Below are positions 56,638 through 64,000 of a DNA stretch of 64,000 nt, piece after piece (position 1 is the stretch's first letter; each line of letters starts with the position of its first letter). The stretch spans positions 3,008,001-3,072,000 of the forward strand of contig OY970192.1 in NCBI GenBank assembly GCA_963708135.1, in the 5' to 3' direction. The position numbers were made by a program, and so were the translations under genes. The notes under the pieces are model-generated. The model had not been told where the DNA came from, searched no databases, and saw nothing but the letters and a program-made list of their open reading frames with translations. Source of the stretch: an uncultured Gemmatimonadales bacterium (GTDB lineage Bacteria > Gemmatimonadota > Gemmatimonadetes > Longimicrobiales > RSA9).

Positions 56638-58650
56638 TCACTGCGTCGAGATGTCCGGCCGCTTCACCACCGTCAGCGTGATCGTGGACGGGTACTTCTT
56701 CGAGTGGTGGACGGCATTGTGCGCCACGACGCCGTGCGCCTCGTCGTAGTTGTGGCCACCGGTGTTGAGGTTCCGGTCGAAGCGCGGGAAGTTGCTGCTC
56801 GACACCTCGATCCGGATGCGGTGGCCCGGCGCGAAGTAGTTGCTGGTGTTCATCGGGCCGAGGGTCACCGGATAGACCTTGCCGGGCTGCATCCACACCT
56901 GCCTGTCGTAGCCGTCCCGGTAGCGCATGCGCTGGATCGTCTCGTCCAGGTTGTAGGCCGTGCCGTCGGGCGCCACGTCGATCAGCTTGGCGGTGAAATC
57001 GGTGTCCTTTGCGTCCGAGGAGACGAAGAGCTTCACGGTCACCGGACCGGTCACGTCCACGCCCTCCTTGAGCGGATCGGTGGTGTAGACGAGGATGTCC
57101 GGCCGCGCCTCCATCTTCCGCTGGTCGAGCGCGCCGCCCTGCACGGCGTTGCCCGTGCAGCAGACGTTGCCGCCGTGCGAGGGCACCGGGTCCATGGGAT
57201 CGTAGGTGAAGGCGTCCGGGTGGTCCGCGGAGGGCGCGTGAGCGGCGAGGGCGCCGTCGCCTGAAAGGGTGTTGGCCTTGCCGCCGCTCGTGAGGAAGAA
57301 GGTCTGCGGCCGCGCGCCGGCGGGAGGCCAGCTGTCCGCGGAATGCCAGCGGTTCTCGCCCATCGTGTAGTACCGCACGCGTGGCATGGTGTCGAGCACC
57401 GTGTGCTGCTCGCCCTTGAGGAAGCGGTCGAAGAAGCCGTACGTCATGTCGTTGTAGTCGAAGCGGGCGTCGCCGACGCTGCGCTCCCCGACGACGGTGT
57501 TCTCGGTCGCGCGCGTGTAGGAGCAGTGCAGCGTCGGCGCGATGATGAGCCACTGCTCCTTGCCCACCTCCGGGTCGGCCGTCTCGCGCACGTGGTTGTA
57601 CGTGGCCAGGTTCGGGCCGATCGAGACGTCGTACCAGGACGTGAACCACAGCCCGGGCACGTCGATCTTCATCGAGCCGTGGTAGAGGCCGCCGCGCCAC
57701 CAGGCGGAGTCCCCCGGCGTGCGCGCGATCATGTCGCCGCCCGTCGCCACCGGCATCGAGTCCGCGAAGATCCCGTGCGGGCCGTCCACCGCCGCGATGA
57801 TGCTGTCCTCCGGAAGGTGCCGGAGCGCCTCGGACCAGTCCACCGGCGGCAGCTGCTGCGCCATGTCGAACGCCTTGGAGGCCCGGATCAGGTCCTCCTG
57901 CGACGTGTTCGCCGGGAACATCGGCCGCACCTGGTTCTGCTCGCCGTACAGCCACGCGATGAACAGCATCTGCACCGCGCCGCCCCGGTACCAGTTGCCC
58001 TGCTCCCAGTACGGCCCCACCTGCCCCACGCCCGCGCCGAAGCCCTGCGGGTTGATCGCCGCCAGCCCGGGAGGCGACGTCGCCGCGACCCCCATCTGCC
58101 ACTCCGCCGTCGACGAGCAGCCCACGAGCCCCACCTTCCCGTTGGCCCACGGCTGCGTCGACATCCACTTGACGGCGTCGTAGCCGTCCGTGCGCGGCGG
58201 GCCAAGGATGTCGTAGTTGCCCTCGCTGAAGAAGTGCCCGCGCTCGTTCATCTCCACGTAGGCGTAGCCGCGCTTCACCGCCTCGAGCTCCCGGCTCATG
58301 TCGCGCGGCACGCCGTTGCGCACGTCCCAGTAGTTGAAGTTGTACGGCGTGCGCACGAAGATGATCGGCACCGCTCCGGTCGCGTTCTTCGGCCGGTAGA
58401 CGTCCGTCGCCATGCGTTTCCCGTCGCGCATCGGCACCATGACCTTGCGGCCGATCACCGCGACGCTCTCGAGCTCGTGCTCCACCTCCCAGCGGTGCGC
58501 CTTCTGCTCGTCGGTCATGGGACCGCGGCGCTGGGCGGCGAGCGGCCGCGCAGGCGCGAGCGCCGCGCACACCACGGCGAGGGCCGCCGCGGCGAGAGTG
58601 GCCTGGGAGCGTGCGTATCGGCGCATGGCTCGACTCCGGGTTGTGGACAT
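56638..58650 (-). CDS. CocE/NonD family hydrolase, secreted
   Basis: MRDG, RTPY, GCSS nucleophile elbow, SWYD and [10 protein letters not shown]. Confidence 0.88.
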
Positions 58651-58827
58651 CGCAGGCTGCGGCGTGGGACCTGTCAATATGCGCACGGGCGTGGTGGAAG
58701 TGTCAAGGCTCTGAAGGCGACGGGGCGCGGGGGTGGGGGCGGAGGAGGAGTAGCGCAGGGGCACGGGAGCTGACGGACTGACCGATGTCCGGTCTGGCTA
58801 TGTCGCCGCCCCTCGCCGCAGGTTTCC

Positions 58828-59859
58828 GTGTACGGCATGGACGCGGAAATCGTTGCTCTCGGAAAGGGACTGCTGGGTGTCCGGTTCGCGTTCGACCGCG
58901 CCGCCGTCGCGGCGGTGCGGGCGATCCCGGGCCGCCGCTGGAACCCGACTGAGGGTCGCTGGACCGTCCCCAACACCCCCGAGAGCAGAGCCCGGCTGGC
59001 TGAGATCTTTCCCGAAAGCGACGACGACGGTTCTCTCCGCGCGCGTCTCCTCCAGGAGCTCCGCATCCGCCGCTACAGCCCGCGCACCATCAAGGCGTAT
59101 CGAAGCCACCTGACCGGATTCGCCCGCCATCTCGGCGGGCGGCCCGGCGAGGCGACGTCGGAGGACGTGCGTGCGTACCTCCTCGCCCTGCAGGCCCGAG
59201 GCGTGTCCGCGGCGTACCAGAACCAGGCCGTCAGCGCGCTGCGCTTCTTCTTCATCCACGTGCTCCGGCGGGAGCTCGATCCGGAGGCCGTGCCCAGGCC
59301 AAAGCGCGACCGGAAGCTGCCGGCGGTACTGAGCGGCGAGGAGATCCGCCGGCTCATCGCCGCGATTCGAAATCCGAAACATCGGGCACTGCTGCTCGTC
59401 ACCTATTCCGCGGGTCTCCGCGTCAGTGAAGCGGTACGCCTGAAACTCATGGATCTGGACGAAGACCGACGAATGATTTACGTTCGCGGAGGCAAGGGCA
59501 GAAAAGATCGGCAGACTCTACTGTCCGACCGCGCGCTCACGGCAGTGCGGGAGGCCCGTAAGTCCGCCGGCTCGAGCCAGTGGCTCTTTCCGGGAGCCCG
59601 CCCCGGCCGCCACCTGACCGCCCGCTCGTTCCAGAAGGTGATCGAGCGCGCGCGCGTCCGCGCCGGCATCGAGAAGCGGTTCTCCGTCCACGCCCTGCGC
59701 CACAGCTTTGCGACGCACCTGCTCGAGGCGGGCACGGACCTCCGCTACATCCAGGAGCTGCTCGGCCACTCGAGCACGCGGACGACCGAAATCTACACGC
59801 ACGTGAGCAAGCGCCAGATCGCCCGGATCCGTAGCCCGCTGGACACGTTGGGGGAGTGA
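58828..59859 (+). CDS. tyrosine recombinase, integron-integrase-like but lacking the IntI insertion; N-terminal HARP-like domain
   Basis: SAM-like YSPRTIKAY..QNQAVSAL; catalytic GLRVSE, GKG, HALRH, LGH and IYTH intact; adjacent to the cassette array. Confidence 0.9.
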   Translation: MYGMDAEIVALGKGLLGVRFAFDRAAVAAVRAIPGRRWNPTEGRWTVPNTPESRARLAEIFPESDDDGSLRARLLQELRIRRYSPRTIKAYRSHLTGFARHLGGRPGEATSEDVRAYLLALQARGVSAAYQNQAVSALRFFFIHVLRRELDPEAVPRPKRDRKLPAVLSGEEIRRLIAAIRNPKHRALLLVTYSAGLRVSEAVRLKLMDLDEDRRMIYVRGGKGRKDRQTLLSDRALTAVREARKSAGSSQWLFPGARPGRHLTARSFQKVIERARVRAGIEKRFSVHALRHSFATHLLEAGTDLRYIQELLGHSSTRTTEIYTHVSKRQIARIRSPLDTLGE

Positions 59860-59929
59860 GCTGCGGGTGGAGGGGGCGCTTGCGGACGCCCTCGCCCACG
59901 AATGGGCGCACAACGGCGCCGAGGACGCC

Positions 59930-59987
59930 GCTTACCGAAATTCGCCAAGTACGCGCCATCACGAAATTCGTAAACTGAACGTTATCT
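59930..59987 (+). promoter_or_regulatory. attI-like primary recombination site
   Basis: TAAACTGAAC|GTTA at the first junction; CGAAATTCG direct repeats at 59936 and 59962; no attC hairpin upstream. Confidence 0.6.
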
Positions 59988-60356
59988 GGAATGCGCTGGA
60001 GCGCTGAACAGCAATGATGTGCTCCGCCGCCCCGCCCCGGTTCCAGCGGCTTTGCGTTCGCGGTGCGATCGACGTCCCCGGCCGGGACGGGTCGGACCGA
60101 CAGGAGCTGGTGAGTCGCCGTGCTTGCGCCGGCTGCGGTTCGGCAGCGAGAGAGATTAGGGGCGTCGCCGTCGACTTTCGACCGTTCCAGGGTTGCACGG
60201 CTTCGGCCGGACAGGAGAGGCGCACTCCAGATAACAGAGCGGTGACCGCTGCGCCGCCTGGGCGGCTTGCCCGCCGGGGGAGCGGTGGCGGCGTTTAGCA
60301 ACACAACATGGGCCGGCGGGACACGGCGCTGCGCGCCGCGTCGGTAACCGCGAAAC
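59981..60356 (+). repeat. ORF-less cassette type A, copy 1 (376 bp)
   Basis: Starts GTTATCTGGAATGCGC; inverse core GCGCACTCCAGATAAC at 60220-60235. Confidence 0.85.
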
Positions 60357-60732
60357 GTTATCTGGAATGCGCTGGAGCGCTGAACAGCAATGATGTGCTC
60401 CGCCGCCCCGCCCCGGTTCCAGCGGCTTTGCGTTCGCGGTGCGATCGACGTCCCCGGCCGGGACGGGTCGGACCGACAGGAGCTGGTGAGTCGCCGTGCT
60501 TGCGCCGGCTGCGGTTCGGCAGCGAGAGAGATTAGGGGCGTCGCCGTCGACTTTCGACCGTTCCAGGGTTGCACGGCTTCGGCCGGACAGGAGAGGCGCA
60601 CTCCAGATAACAGAGCGGTGACCGCTGCGCCGCCTGGGCGGCTTGCCCGCCGGGGGAGCGGTGGCGGCGTTTAGCAACACAACATGGGCCGGCGGGACAC
60701 GGCGCTGCGCGCCGCGTCGGTAACCGCGAAAC
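60357..60732 (+). repeat. ORF-less cassette type A, copy 2 (376 bp)
   Basis: Appears identical to copy 1; inverse core at 60596-60611. Confidence 0.85.
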
Positions 60733-60750
60733 GTTAGAAGACATGCCGGG

Positions 60751-60782
60751 TTGACGGGCGGTGGTACTGAGTACTATAGTAC
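60751..60782 (+). promoter_or_regulatory. sigma70-type TA promoter with palindromic operator
   Basis: TTGACG-N18-TATAGT; palindrome GTACTATAGTAC (60771-60782) over the -10; GGAGG follows. Confidence 0.7.
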
Positions 60783-60818
60783 GGAGGACGTTGAAGCCGG
60801 GAGGCTCGTATCGAATTC

Positions 60819-61139
60819 GTGGCAACCCGCAGCTTCGAGAGCTCCGCGAAGAAGCTCCTGTCCGAAGAGGACCGGAGGCAGCTTGAGTTGCTCCTGCTGG
60901 GAGATCCACGACATGGCAAGGTGATTGAGCGCACTGGCGGTTTCCGGAAGGTGCGCTTCGCTCGACCCAGCCGGCGTGAAGGGAAGAGCGGCGGTACTCG
61001 GGTGATCTACTATCTCCTCGATCGACGTGACCGGATCTACCTGCTCCTCGTGTACGCGAAGGGGGTGAAGGACACCCTCACCCGCACCGAGGAGAACGAA
61101 CTTCGGAAGCTGGCAAAGGCATTGGAGGAAGAACGGTGA
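60819..61139 (+). CDS. RelE/HigB-type toxin (toxin-first order); true start may be upstream
   Basis: GKVIERTGGFRKVRF...GKSGGTRVIYY...LLLVYAK..KDTLT. Confidence 0.85.
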   Translation: MATRSFESSAKKLLSEEDRRQLELLLLGDPRHGKVIERTGGFRKVRFARPSRREGKSGGTRVIYYLLDRRDRIYLLLVYAKGVKDTLTRTEENELRKLAKALEEER

Positions 61140-61516
61140 CCAAGGCACGGAGGAAGGGTACGTTCGGGCAGGTGCTCATCGAGTCCGCAAGAGAGGCGGT
61201 GCAGATCGAGCGCGGTGAGGCACCCCCGGCTCGTGTCACCAAGCACACGGCTGCGGAAACGAGGGTGGCACCTCCGCCTCAATACGTGCCGGAACGTATC
61301 AAGGGAATCCGGGATGTCATGGCATTGTCCCAGCCTGTCTTCGCTGCGGCCTTGAATGTGAGTCCAGAGACAGTCCGCGCTTGGGAACAGGGGAAGAGGG
61401 AACCCGACGGCCCTACGCTTCGACTCCTCAAGGTAGCGGAGCAGCACCCCGAGGTGCTCCTTACAAAAGTGCGGGCCCGAAGGTCGAGGAAACGGCCCAG
61501 CGCCGAGATCCGGTAA
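61136..61516 (+). CDS. HigA-type XRE HTH antitoxin
   Basis: LSQPVFAAALNVSPETVRAWEQGKREPDGP; GTGA overlap with the toxin. Confidence 0.85.
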   Translation: MTKARRKGTFGQVLIESAREAVQIERGEAPPARVTKHTAAETRVAPPPQYVPERIKGIRDVMALSQPVFAAALNVSPETVRAWEQGKREPDGPTLRLLKVAEQHPEVLLTKVRARRSRKRPSAEIR

Positions 61517-61666
61517 CGTGCCTTGGAATGACGCGGTCAGCGTCATGGCCGGCACGTCTTCTAACACACGGTGAGCGCCTGCGCGGCTTCGCTCCGGCCC
61601 TTCGGGACACCGAATCCTCAGCGCCGCGTTGCGGCGCCACCGGTTCGGCGTCGCTCACCTGGAAAC

Positions 61667-62043
61667 GTTATCCGGAATGCGCTGGTGCGCTGGGGAGTGA
61701 ACCTCTTGTTCCCCTCCCCGCCCCGGATCCAGCGGTTTCGCGGGACCGGTGCAATCGATGATCCTGGCACACCGGGTTCGCGAGGCAGCAGCTGGTGAGG
61801 CGCCGGGCGCATCGTTCCTGTATCCGCGGCGTCGAGAGCCCGGCCGGAGTCGAAGCGTTTGTCGGCGCTGAGTTCCGGGCCGCGCCCGCCTTCCGCTGGA
61901 GGCGGAGGGGCGCACTCCGGATAACAGAGCGGTGGCCGCTGCGCCGCCTTCAGCGGCTTGCCCGCCGGGTGAAGTGAAGTCGTAGGCTGAGAACACGGGC
62001 CGGCGGGACGCGGCGCTGGGGGCCGCGTCGGCAACCGCCAGAC
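61667..62043 (+). repeat. ORF-less cassette, divergent type B (377 bp)
   Basis: Starts GTTATCCGGAATGCGC; inverse core GCGCACTCCGGATAAC at 61910-61925. Confidence 0.8.
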
Positions 62044-62420
62044 GTTATCTGGAATGCGCTGGAGCGCTGAACAGCAATGATGTGCTCCGCCGCCCCGCCC
62101 CGGTTCCAGCGGCTTTGCGCTCGCGGTGCGATGGACGTTGACGGGCCGGGATGCGTCAGAGGAGGCAGGAGCTGGTGAGGCGCCGTGCGTCGGCCCGCCG
62201 GTGCGGTTCGGCAGCGGGGCACGTGCAGGTCGCCGGCGGCGAGTTGCGACCGTTCCAGAGTGCACGGCTGTGGCAGGACGCGAGAGGCGCACTGCAGATA
62301 ACGGAGCGGTGACCGCTGCGCCGCCTTCGGCGGCTCGCCCGCCGGGTGAAGTGAAGTCCAAGCCCGAAAAGATGGGCCGGCGGGACACGGCGCTGCGCGC
62401 CACGTCGGTAACCGAGAGAC
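62044..62420 (+). repeat. ORF-less cassette type C, copy 1 (377 bp)
   Basis: 5' part matches type A, remainder diverges; inverse core at 62287-62302. Confidence 0.8.
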
Positions 62421-62797
62421 GTTATCTGGAATGCGCTGGAGCGCTGAACAGCAATGATGTGCTCCGCCGCCCCGCCCCGGTTCCAGCGGCTTTGCGTTCG
62501 CGGTGCGATCGACGTCCCCGGCCGGGACGGGTCGGACCGACAGGAGCTGGTGAGTCGCCGTGCTTGCGCCGGCTGCGGTTCGGCAGCGAGAGAGATTAGG
62601 GGCGTCGCCGTCGAACTTTCGACCGTTCCAGGGTTGCACGGCTTCGGCCGGACAGGAGAGGCGCACTCCAGATAACAGAGCGGTGACCGCTGCGCCGCCT
62701 GGGCGGCTTGCCCGCCGGGGGAGCGGTGGCGGCGTTTAGCAACACAACATGGGCCGGCGGGACACGGCGCTGCGCGCCGCGTCGGTAACCGCGAAAC
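62421..62797 (+). repeat. ORF-less cassette type A, copy 3 (377 bp)
   Basis: Type A with a 1-nt insertion; inverse core at 62661-62676. Confidence 0.85.
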
Positions 62798-63154
62798 GTT
62801 ATCTGGAATGCGCTGGAGCGCCAAACAGCTGATGTGGTCCCCGCCCCGCCCGGTTCCAGCGGCTTTGCGCTCGCGGTGCGATGGACGTTACGGGCCGGGA
62901 TGCGTCCGAGGGGGCAGGAGCTGGTGAGGCGCCGTGCGTCAGCCCCGCCGGTGCGGTTCGGCGGCGGGGCACCTGCAGGTCGCCGGCGGCGAGTTGCGGC
63001 CATTACAGAGTGCACGGCTGTGGCAGGACGGGAGAGGCGCACTCCAGATAACGGAGCGGTGACCGCTGCGCGCTTGGCGGCTGCGCGGGTGAAGTGAAGT
63101 CAAGCGAAACGAGGGGGCGGGACACGGCGCTGCGCGCCGCGTCGGTAACGAAAC
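62798..63154 (+). repeat. ORF-less cassette type C, copy 2 (357 bp, deletions in the attC part)
   Basis: Inverse core at 63037-63052. Confidence 0.75.
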
Positions 63155-63530
63155 GTTATCTGGAATGCGCTGGAGCGCTGAACAGCAATGATGTGCTCCG
63201 CCGCCCCGCCCCGGTTCCAGCGGCTTTGCGTTCGCGGTGCGATCGACGTCCCCGGCCGGGACGGGTCGGACCGACAGGAGCTGGTGAGTCGCCGTGCTTG
63301 CGCCGGCTGCGGTTCGGCAGCGAGAGAGATTAGGGGCGTCGCCGTTGAACTTTCGACCGTTCCAGGGTTGCACGGCTTCGGCCGGACAGGAGAGGCGCAC
63401 TCCAGATAACAGAGCGGTGACCGCTGCGCCGCCTGGGCGGCTTGCCCGCCGGGGGAGCGGTGGCGGCGTTTAGCAACACAACATGGGCCGGCGGGACACG
63501 GCGCTGCGCGCCGCGTCGGTAACCGCGAAA
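63155..63530 (+). repeat. ORF-less cassette type A, copy 4; 3' crossover missing
   Basis: Inverse core at 63395-63410; ends CGCGAAA without CGTTA. Confidence 0.8.
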
Positions 63531-63595
63531 AAACCGCCATGTTCCGCTCGGCCTTTTGTAGCAGATTTGGGGTGATAACGACAAAGGGAGATTCC

Positions 63596-63807
63596 ATGGC
63601 GAGCGTACGATCGAGGAACTGCTGAAGTTGTGTGGGGAGCGAATCCAGCTGGTCGAAGATCTCTGGGATAGCATGCTGGGACGGAGGGATTTCCGCTCTG
63701 AGGCACAGAAGGCCGAGCTGGATCGCCGGTTAGAGGAGCACAGGGCGGATACGGATAGCGGTGCCTGGGAAGAGGTTCGTGAGCGGCTGTACAAGAAGTA
63801 CGGGTGA
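63596..63807 (+). CDS. addiction-module antitoxin component (TIGR02574-like), apparent early frameshift
   Basis: Manual translation ..IEELLKL..ERIQLVEDLWDS..QKAELDRRLEEH..WEEVRERL; ATG out of frame by an indel. Confidence 0.75.
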
Positions 63808-64000
63808 GTAGCGAGTTCGTTGTCCGCCTCAGGCAGAAGCAGAACTAGATGAGGCTGCGGCTTGGTATTCTGAGCGTTCGAGGGGATTGGGAGCAGAGTT
63901 CGTTCGAATAGTCGATGCCGCGTTCGCGGCGATACAGAGAAATCCGCTACAGTTTACAGTTGTACACAGACAAGTGCGGCGGGCGGTGCTTAGAAGATTT
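63804..64000 (+). CDS. ParE/RelE-family toxin, partial, apparent early frameshift
   Basis: Manual translation ..AEAELDEAAAWYSERSRGLGAEFVRIVDAAFAAIQRNPLQF..VRRAVLRRF. Confidence 0.75.

Follow-up and report, generated by a model that had tools for sequence, protein, structure and literature searches.

Long self-complementary cassette ends with a conserved mismatch at position 11 in an integron-like array of Gemmatimonadota headed by an insert-less tyrosine recombinase

The 64,000-nucleotide stretch analysed here (the window) comprises positions 3008001–3072000 of the single-contig genome of an uncultured Gemmatimonadales bacterium (5.45 Mb, 72% G+C, 97.65% complete), and its last part holds the head of a tandem array of small cassettes that lies downstream of a tyrosine recombinase gene. 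The 5′ end of a cassette (R′) is complementary over 14–18 bp to the inverse core (R″) of the site that closes the same cassette, and the long pairing is interrupted at a fixed place, position 11 counted with the G of GTTA as position 1, by an A·C mismatch that becomes T·G on the bottom strand. We consider it probable that these features form the site grammar of an integron-type cassette system whose recombinases, tyrosine recombinases related to Xer and IntI, make up a distinct clade that lacks the I2 insert of integron integrases. The observation, first made in a sequence-only reading of the window, is real, highly non-random and general across phyla; the interpretation attached to it, that the units exist as circles and recombine as folded bottom strands with their own recognition code, appears largely right in kind, its mechanism being putative.

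Pairing of cassette ends and the position-11 mismatch

Cassettes were delimited by hand from the context of GTTA, with pairing ignored, in eight arrays of seven genomes (the present genome and six further genomes of the same family). Of the 76 cassettes obtained, 74 carry AAC in the tail, and these yield 60 unique R′ 18-mers. In 42 of the 60 unique cassettes, at least 14 of the 18 positions of the 5′ end match its own R″, whereas non-own pairs match at a mean of 9.3 positions (standard deviation 1.5) and reach 14 in only 0.18% of 3394 combinations; the start of the cassette that follows next on the DNA reaches 14 in none of 53. The claim that each cassette's 5′ end pairs with its own inverse core far past the canonical 7 bp is thus borne out well beyond the window. 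Within the window, every sequence quoted in the earlier reading is found at its given position. R′ and R″ of the type A cassettes are complementary at 94% over 16 nt and those of the toxin-antitoxin cassette at 94% over 17 nt, and the type B cassette carries a compensatory change (T>C / A>G; cassette 4 in Table 1).

The composition of the stem differs from position to position. Among the 44 sites with at least 13 matches, positions 5–7, 9 and 12–16 each display three or four types of Watson–Crick pair with few non-pairs, position 8 is a G–C pair in 43, and GTTA/TAAC is likewise fixed. Position 11 is A·C in 43 of these sites and A·A in the remaining one, so that the single A·C mismatch noticed in all three cassette types of the window holds in the family at large. 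A second mismatch, at position 10, is present in 16 of the 44 (A·A in 11, C·A in three, A·C in one and C·C in one). When R′ ends are counted without any filter on pairing, A11 is found in 59 of 62 and G8 in 60 of 62. The features conserved across arrays are therefore G8, M10, A11 and often T12 in R′, together with C11 in R″, while positions 12–14 covary. The formula GTTA-N6-ATGC / GCAC-N6-TAAC, proposed from the window, describes its three cassette types; across arrays its ATGC/GCAC part is not general.

Related recombinases in other phyla are accompanied by the same grammar. Scanning one genome per species yielded 80 loci whose homologues are 39–59% identical to the recombinase, and 77 of the loci were analysed. 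The 80 loci belong to Bacillota, Chloroflexota, Latescibacterota, Bacteroidota, Ignavibacteriota, Chlorobiaceae, Spirochaetota, Acidobacteriota, Gemmatimonadota, one Undinarchaeales genome and others. Inverted ends were searched as 17-nt pairs (GTT... against ...AAC) with at most three mismatches, within 4.5 kb. Downstream of the recombinase, 272 kb contain 132 such pairs, 100 of them with A·C at position 11 and a further 10 with G·T, the latter all at one locus that seemingly holds oppositely oriented units; upstream, 586 kb contain 21 pairs, none with A·C or G·T. At least one A·C pair is present in 32 of the 42 loci with at least 1.5 kb of downstream sequence, mostly starting 55–190 nt past the stop codon, and in the other 35 of the 77 loci the contig ends less than 1.5 kb from the gene, as expected beside repeats. 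The grammar is found beside insert-less homologues in Bacillota, Bacteroidota, Ignavibacteriota, Latescibacterota and Spirochaetota. The motif and its mismatch, whose absence from other arrays of this recombinase clade would have spoken against a dedicated code, are thus present both in the eight arrays of the family and in these loci of other phyla.

These counts can also be read in another way. Position 11 could be a sequence mark on duplex DNA, in which the 11-bp R′ arm (GTTA-N3-G-N-M-A) is the binding arm and an R″ that on the other strand has G in place of A is not treated as a crossover, the mismatch in the hairpin being a by-product. The binding arms of Xer recombinases are 11 bp long, as this arm is. 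Each of the two bases is conserved singly (A11 in 59 of 62 R′ ends, C11 in 43 of 44 R″), and the mark persists in recombinases that lack the N-terminal domain described below. Such a mark leaves unexplained the six further covarying pairs beyond position 11, where canonical pairing stops, and the frequent second mismatch at position 10. We regard this reading as unlikely, although it deserves serious consideration.

The recombinase and its clade

The recombinase at the head of the array scores 225.5 bits against the NCBIfam XerA model NF040815, over its cut-off of 220; the NCBI product name of this model is "site-specific tyrosine recombinase/integron integrase". Against the integron integrase model TIGR02249 it scores 216.9 bits, below the cut-off of 265, in two stretches that skip profile positions 179–234. 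In alignment with VchIntIA (2a3v), residues 237–260 (24 aa) stand for IntI residues 174–239 (66 aa), the region of the IntI-specific insert. As judged from these alignments, the enzyme is without the I2 insert. Its structure model (mean predicted local distance difference test score 86.7) matches 2a3v best and XerA next, with PDB hits 4a8e and 5hxy. The protein has at least 7973 homologues at E up to 1e-20 among 8000 candidates scored. The spacing from the GKGxKxR motif to the LRH motif is 67–69 aa in 47 of the 51 places matched, against about 108 in IntI4 by the 2a3v alignment; this count includes G015 (L018), G016 (L008, L023) and G038 (L021), genomes flagged as unpublished. The genome contains other Xer-like genes, and no protein in this single contig, 97.65% complete, exceeds the TIGR02249 cut-off for a canonical IntI. 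Carriers of the recombinase in other lineages include Natronincola peptidivorans DSM 18979, Marinisporobacter balticus DSM 102940 and Halanaerobacter jeridensis DSM 23230.

A quick maximum-likelihood tree with 73 rows unites 40 members in a single clade with a support of 97, and a long branch (support 100) sets all 21 canonical IntI rows, including IntI1 of plasmid pKP96, apart. The recombinase is no closer to canonical IntI than to the Xer proteins of its own genome; the clade may or may not be sister to IntI in this tree, which has no firm root. The unpublished genomes G016 (L008, L023) and G038 (L021, L119) are among its rows. A homologue search started from a canonical IntI returned close relatives only (75–100% identity), and the tree was not widened by it. 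One row, L064, is labelled Lutibacter sp. B2 and lies among tightly grouped Thermotaleaceae (Bacillota) sequences, at branch lengths of about 0.07, a placement that could reflect recent transfer or a mis-binned contig. In the Undinarchaeales metagenome-assembled genome (L085), two insert-less recombinase motif pairs stand in tandem at about 9189 and 10643, and the contig ends right after the second.

Most members of the clade carry an additional N-terminal domain of about 65 aa (58828–59025 in the window) with two invariant Trp residues and the order strand-strand-helix-strand-strand-helix. Pfam gave no match to the N-terminal 80 aa at E up to 10, and the best score of residues 1–66 in a protein atlas, 0.80, is under the level taken as a lead. 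A fold search with a model of the domain (pLDDT 88) returned the N-terminal domain of T4 UvsW (Z 5.3), the N-terminal domains of XPB (4.7 and 4.6) and the HARP domain of SMARCAL1 (4.0). These Z scores are all under the caution line of 8, and the predicted resemblance to the DNA-structure-sensing domains of UvsW, XPB and HARP may be taken as a lead only. The alignment and fold of the domain include the unpublished G015 (L018); no array statistic uses G015, G016 or G038.

The Xer-like character of the enzyme invites the reading that the cassette boundaries are ordinary double-stranded core sites of Xer type (L′, spacer, R′), comparable to dif or pdif modules, with a hairpin that has no role. The recombinase is indeed without I2, exceeds the XerA cut-off and in the tree is no nearer to canonical IntI than to the Xer proteins of the same genome. 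Duplex sites of this kind would have no need of R″ and L″, yet throughout the arrays and phyla examined these covary with R′ and L′, and the extension of R″ matches the far end of its own cassette, not that of the neighbour. We hold this reading to be quite improbable.

Folded sites, proposed mechanism and weighing of alternatives

Sites were folded with DNA parameters both in their array context and circularised, that is, joined to their own 5′ end. The circularised site is predicted to form a long hairpin in which an R stem (about 17 bp) is followed by an internal loop, then by an L stem (about 8 bp) and finally by a branched centre; it is more stable than the in-array form by 9.7 kcal/mol. 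Of the two circularised strands, the bottom one is the more stable in 36 of the 44 sites, by 3.4 kcal/mol on average over the set. On the bottom strand, the unpaired spacers between R and L most often measure 7 nt (5′ side) and 4 nt (3′ side). GAC or GAA stands where the L stem ends inwardly in 44 of 46 sites, and its A is unpaired in 35. The sequence-only reading had described inner arms flanking an asymmetric unpaired spacer: the arms are real, the asymmetric unpaired parts are situated between R stem and L stem, and the long centre that the inner arms enclose is predicted to fold.

A structure of this kind might act in RNA, for instance in an antisense transcript with G·U at position 11. 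RNA normally accommodates G·U pairs, and the asymmetry is specific to the strand; in a linear transcript, though, the two halves of the stem would lie 200–2500 nt apart, flanking the cargo, no Rfam family was matched at E up to 1 within 58600–64000, and the type A unit has no excess fold stability (z −0.9). A role in RNA is accordingly very improbable.

The mechanism that we propose for the integron-type system is as follows. A cassette would consist of cargo followed by an attC-like site in the order R″, short spacer, L″, variable centre, L′, spacer and G. Strand exchange would occur at or beside the step between G and TTA, and the approximately 17 bases after the G would travel at the 5′ end of the cassette. 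Excision as a circle would bring this 5′ end to its own R″ and close an R stem of 16–18 bp; in the array, the R stem would shrink to GTTA/TAAC plus a few chance pairs. As in classical integrons, a recombinase dimer would meet an R box, an unpaired spacer and an L box on the folded single strand. The fixed irregularity at position 11, and often at 10, would lie one helical turn from the exchange point, and the roughly six covarying pairs beyond would hold it internal to the stem. In classical integrons, strand and polarity are read from two extrahelical bases by the I2 helix. Here, the irregularity, the 7/4 spacer asymmetry and the unpaired A of GAC at the inner end of the 8-bp L stem most likely tell the enzyme strand and polarity together. 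What has been observed is the pairing with its covariation and mismatch, the association with this recombinase clade in several phyla and the contrast to canonical sites; the circles, exchange of a folded single strand, use of the bottom strand and recognition of position 11 by the enzyme are inferred.

Canonical integrons of the same phylum served as a control. Integron integrases over the whole-model cut-off are present in 124 of 301 sampled genomes of the phylum (the sample includes G038, flagged as unpublished, and G202 and G224); they are about 55% identical to IntI1, and their arrays are downstream of intI and co-oriented with it. Their cassettes start with GTTAGGCAGC-like ends. Own-end pairing in these sites extends to about position 11 and is then found in 26 of 58 pairs at position 12 and 21 of 58 at position 13, falling to chance from position 14 (the 58 pairs were selected for at most one mismatch in the first 11 positions and include some cross-cassette pairs); the nine most stringent pairs are perfectly paired through position 13. 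None of the stringently paired canonical sets has a mismatch at position 11. The bottom-strand L helix of canonical sites contains two single-base bulges, six pairs apart and on the 3′ arm, in 18 of 29 sites, with mirror-image bulges in six further sites at loci whose array is on the other strand; the two-bulge pattern is found in 0 of 46 sites of the insert-less family. These contrasts in R pairing and L box bear out the suggestion of a separate recognition code.

[quoted passage not shown] Canonical IntI is common in the phylum, as counted above, but no IntI over cut-off exists in this genome, the two-bulge L box of canonical attC is absent from all 46 sites, and the pairing of array and recombinase recurs in the other phyla, at the 32 of 42 loci and in each case downstream of the gene with the same orientation. 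We find this explanation hardly plausible.

We give almost no credence to terminal inverted repeats of small transposons or miniature inverted-repeat transposable elements (MITEs), or to an IS91-type element with its own integrase, tandemly inserted: imperfect inverted repeats of 16–18 bp do flank each cargo and a non-coding unit is amplified 13 times, but duplicated units take in the downstream L″–L′ hairpin beyond the inverted ends, the ends vary between cassettes yet carry one fixed mismatch, the gene upstream of the recombinase encodes an S15 peptidase, and the seven matches over cut-off to the Y2 transposase family PF04986 lie at 1.82–1.85 Mb (six) and 3.85 Mb (a single short match of 22 bits); the closest of them is about 0.78 Mb away from the array, the recombinase being at 3.067 Mb.

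The extent of the mobile unit can be seen in duplicated and shared cassettes, which start at GTTA and stop after the spacer that follows L′, irrespective of their neighbours. Cassettes 3 and 19 of the present array are 99.9% identical across 934 of 934 nt and have different neighbours, and cassette 4 of one relative (G012) is 87% identical end to end to cassette 3 of another (G027), although the two genomes belong to different genera. With cargo on the plus strand followed by an inverted-repeat site, the units behave as integron-type cassettes.

Circles as intermediates have indirect support. The long stem can close only between a cassette's own ends (42 of 60 against 0 of 53), as selection on the circularised cassette predicts. 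One soil-metagenome run covers the stretch, in the form of contigs; these stop at cassette boundaries, with loose ends that correspond to further copies within this genome, and they speak neither for nor against circles. In one contig of the run, of depth 3.9, 210 nt inside cassette 4 are skipped.

Several points weigh against the reading that we prefer. The contigs of this one run contain no excised circle, circular junction or recombination event. The energy gain of the bottom strand is small (3.4 kcal/mol, standard deviation 3.4), and 8 of 44 sites favour the top strand; use of the bottom strand is weakly suggested by this difference, and cassette boundaries are blind to which strand is exchanged. 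The boundaries themselves were set by hand from the GTTA context, and 18 of the 60 unique cassettes have an own-end score below 14; those of them that were read by eye display one-base indels in the stem (10, 11 and 12), a decayed junction (8) or insertions of insertion sequence (IS) elements (21 and 26). Among 113 unique array-context pairs from the other phyla, selected for at most four mismatches, position 11 is A·C in 78 and Watson–Crick in 22, so that the mismatch has exceptions. The A·C mark is retained in clade members lacking the N-terminal domain (L096, L104, L112 and L118; open frames of 295–331 aa), and for this reason the domain cannot be the reader of position 11. Finally, PMC7790495 holds that the I2 helix is what makes single-strand exchange safe, and the mechanism proposed here gives no account of how an enzyme without the insert would avoid a second strand exchange.

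Array layout, cargo and relation to known systems

The array comprises about 30 or 31 cassettes, delimited by 31 boundaries read with their context, across 25 kb, and it ends at about genome position 3092865 (84865 on the scale of the window), 21 kb beyond the window end. The cassettes are co-oriented, with the recombinase gene at the array head and the first GTTA 122 nt past its stop codon. The motif pair of the sequence-only reading occurs 16 and 17 times genome-wide, 15 of each within 3067981–3092865. Two 26-nt direct repeats that are 73% identical (59917–59942 and 59943–59968) lie just 5′ of the first crossover point and recall the integrase-binding direct repeats of attI1. On its 5′ side the recombinase gene is flanked by a divergently oriented gene for an S15 X-Pro dipeptidyl-peptidase. 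The features of the window are collected in Table 1.

Table 1. Coordinates of the recombinase gene, the putative attI-like region and the cassettes on the scale of the window
Feature	Coordinates	Strand	Details or basis
Tyrosine recombinase, 343 aa, extra N-terminal domain of about 65 aa	58828–59859	+	NF040815, TIGR02249, 2a3v alignment
Putative attI-like region, recombinase stop to first GTTA	59860–59980	+	Position; direct repeats
Cassette 1, type A, non-coding, 376 nt	59981–60356	+	R′ 59981–59996, R″ 60220–60235, L″ 60239–60249, L′ 60342–60351
Cassette 2, type A, identical copy of cassette 1	60357–60732	+	R′ 60357–60372, R″ 60596–60611
Cassette 3, toxin-antitoxin	60733–61666	+	R′ 60733–60749, R″ 61549–61565, L″ 61570–61577, L′ 61652–61659
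Cassette 3, RelE-like open reading frame	60819–61139	+	Pfam RelE 1.7e-6
Cassette 3, helix-turn-helix (HTH)/MqsA-like antitoxin open reading frame	61136–61516	+	HTH_3 and NadS/MqsA matches
Cassette 4, type B, non-coding	61667–62043	+	R′ 61667–61682, R″ 61910–61925; compensatory change, position 7
Cassette 5, type A variant	62044–62420	+	R″ 62287–62302, extra mismatch at position 9
Cassette 6, type A	62421–62797	+	R″ 62661–62676
Cassette 7, type A variant, 357 nt	62798–63154	+	R″ 63037–63052
Cassette 8, type A, fused to next cassette	63155–63534	+	Degenerate attC junction at about 63527–63534, without GTTA
Next cassette (toxin-antitoxin type), start only, leaves window	63535–64000	+	Antitoxin-like open reading frame 63628–63807, Pfam Unstab_antitox 1.3e-11

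Among the cargo are a RelE/HTH pair, a gene for Unstab_antitox, a pair of DUF4258 and DUF2283, DUF3800 and HTH proteins; with its toxin-antitoxin pairs, DUF3800 and small HTH proteins, the cargo is typical of chromosomal integrons. Types A and B represent a non-coding unit of 357–378 nt that occupies 12 cassettes and part of a 13th (about 40% of the slots), from 59981–63534 in the window on to genome position 3084454. The 12 copies comprise 10 sequence variants with indels that are not multiples of three and lack a conserved reading frame; neither the genome outside this array nor the fetched loci of relatives yielded a further copy. We considered the unit as a gene or a structured RNA and rejected both, in view of the non-triplet indels, the lack of a convincing alifold structure and the fold z score given above.

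Several cassettes depart from the general plan. At the junction after cassette 8 the GTTA is lost, and a type A unit is fused to a toxin-antitoxin cassette; the part fused to it shares 72% identity with an entire cassette of G027, which starts with an intact GTTAACC. Cassette 21 is over-long, with an unrecognisable R″, and contains an IS630-type DDE_3 transposase gene on the opposite strand (L152:9473–10561, minus strand), and cassette 26, also over-long, contains an IS21 IstB gene, again on the opposite strand (L152:12646–13593, minus strand). The ends of cassettes 28 and 30 (L152:17900–17995 and L153:800–865) consist of an R″-like end, AGAC and the next GTTA, without an L″–L′ hairpin; these distal junctions are minimal or collapsed sites. 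Elsewhere in the genome, far from the array, four full and two partial matches to IS91-type Y2 transposases lie inside 35 kb (G000:C1:1815547–1849070).

Published descriptions of integrons set the background for these observations. The attC model in use (attC_4) has 47 positions in all, and the intI_Cterm profile of IntegronFinder has 59, with 50% coverage required. Escudero et al. 2020 (PMC7790495) describe I2 and single-strand recombination as exclusive to integron integrases, with an I2 helix that permits safe single-strand exchange; the authors of IntegronFinder (PMC4889954) judge recombinases that lack the IntI region and lie beside attC sites not to be IntI; Cury et al. mention only four such proteins between IntI and Xer, each beside fewer than three sites; Néron et al. 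2022 (PMC9024848) record one complete integron in Firmicutes; and Ghaly et al. 2022 (PMC9668308) state that archaeal IntIs possess the additional domain. A full-text search, with subscription journals outside it, found no paper on cassette arrays of insert-less recombinases or on a lengthened R stem that bears a fixed mismatch. The present analysis contributes the rule for position 11 and the comparison with canonical sites side by side.

The clade may tentatively be viewed as a second old and widespread integron lineage, in at least Gemmatimonadota, Bacillota, Bacteroidota, Ignavibacteriota, Latescibacterota and Spirochaetota, that never had I2 or lost it and reads the long R stem, the wobble and the bulged A; we put this forward as a possibility that falls short of an even chance. 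If it were true, single-strand hairpin recombination would be independent of I2, and the lineage might show integrons as they were before I2 was acquired. A large insert-less clade heads long cassette arrays in many phyla, among them Bacillota, where integrons are reported to be nearly absent (PMC9024848). Should the system be active, the known reach of cassette-based gene capture would widen, some arrays otherwise scored as integrase-less would be explained, and, because two systems with different site codes coexist in one phylum, a natural experiment on the evolution of structure-specific DNA recognition would be at hand. The wobble at position 11 would offer a single-base handle on strand choice, in a site grammar that is simple and testable.

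Known systems can be compared on several points. In sequence and fold the recombinase is as near to archaeal XerA as to IntI, and the spacing of its catalytic motifs is Xer-like; XerC/D and XerA act at a single dif, whereas dozens of hairpin sites and mobile cassettes are found here, and most members of the clade have the extra N-terminal domain. The likeness to classical integrons extends to a tyrosine recombinase that heads a one-directional array, the R″–L″...L′–R′ arrangement of arms with a GTT/AAC core, unpaired spacers between R and L and a variable centre, a cassette 5′ end that carries the outer R′, and a cargo rich in toxin-antitoxin pairs. The closest known systems are classical integrons, especially the sedentary chromosomal ones with a co-oriented integrase, as the canonical integrons of the same phylum also have. 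The differences lie in the recombinase, which is without the approximately 42-aa insert of IntI and belongs to a separate clade; in the R stem, which measures 16–18 bp against the 7-bp core of the attC model and about 11 bp in canonical sites of the phylum; in the fixed A·C (T·G) at position 11; and in the L box, with one unpaired A on the 5′ arm of the bottom strand in place of two extrahelical bases on the 3′ arm. The array thus has the attC plan with its AAC...GTT core and exchange point between G and TT, and a co-oriented series of small cassettes beside the recombinase, and it is without the IntI-specific insert and the two extrahelical bases of the L box; because of these two absences, we file it as a variant of the integron and not as a member.

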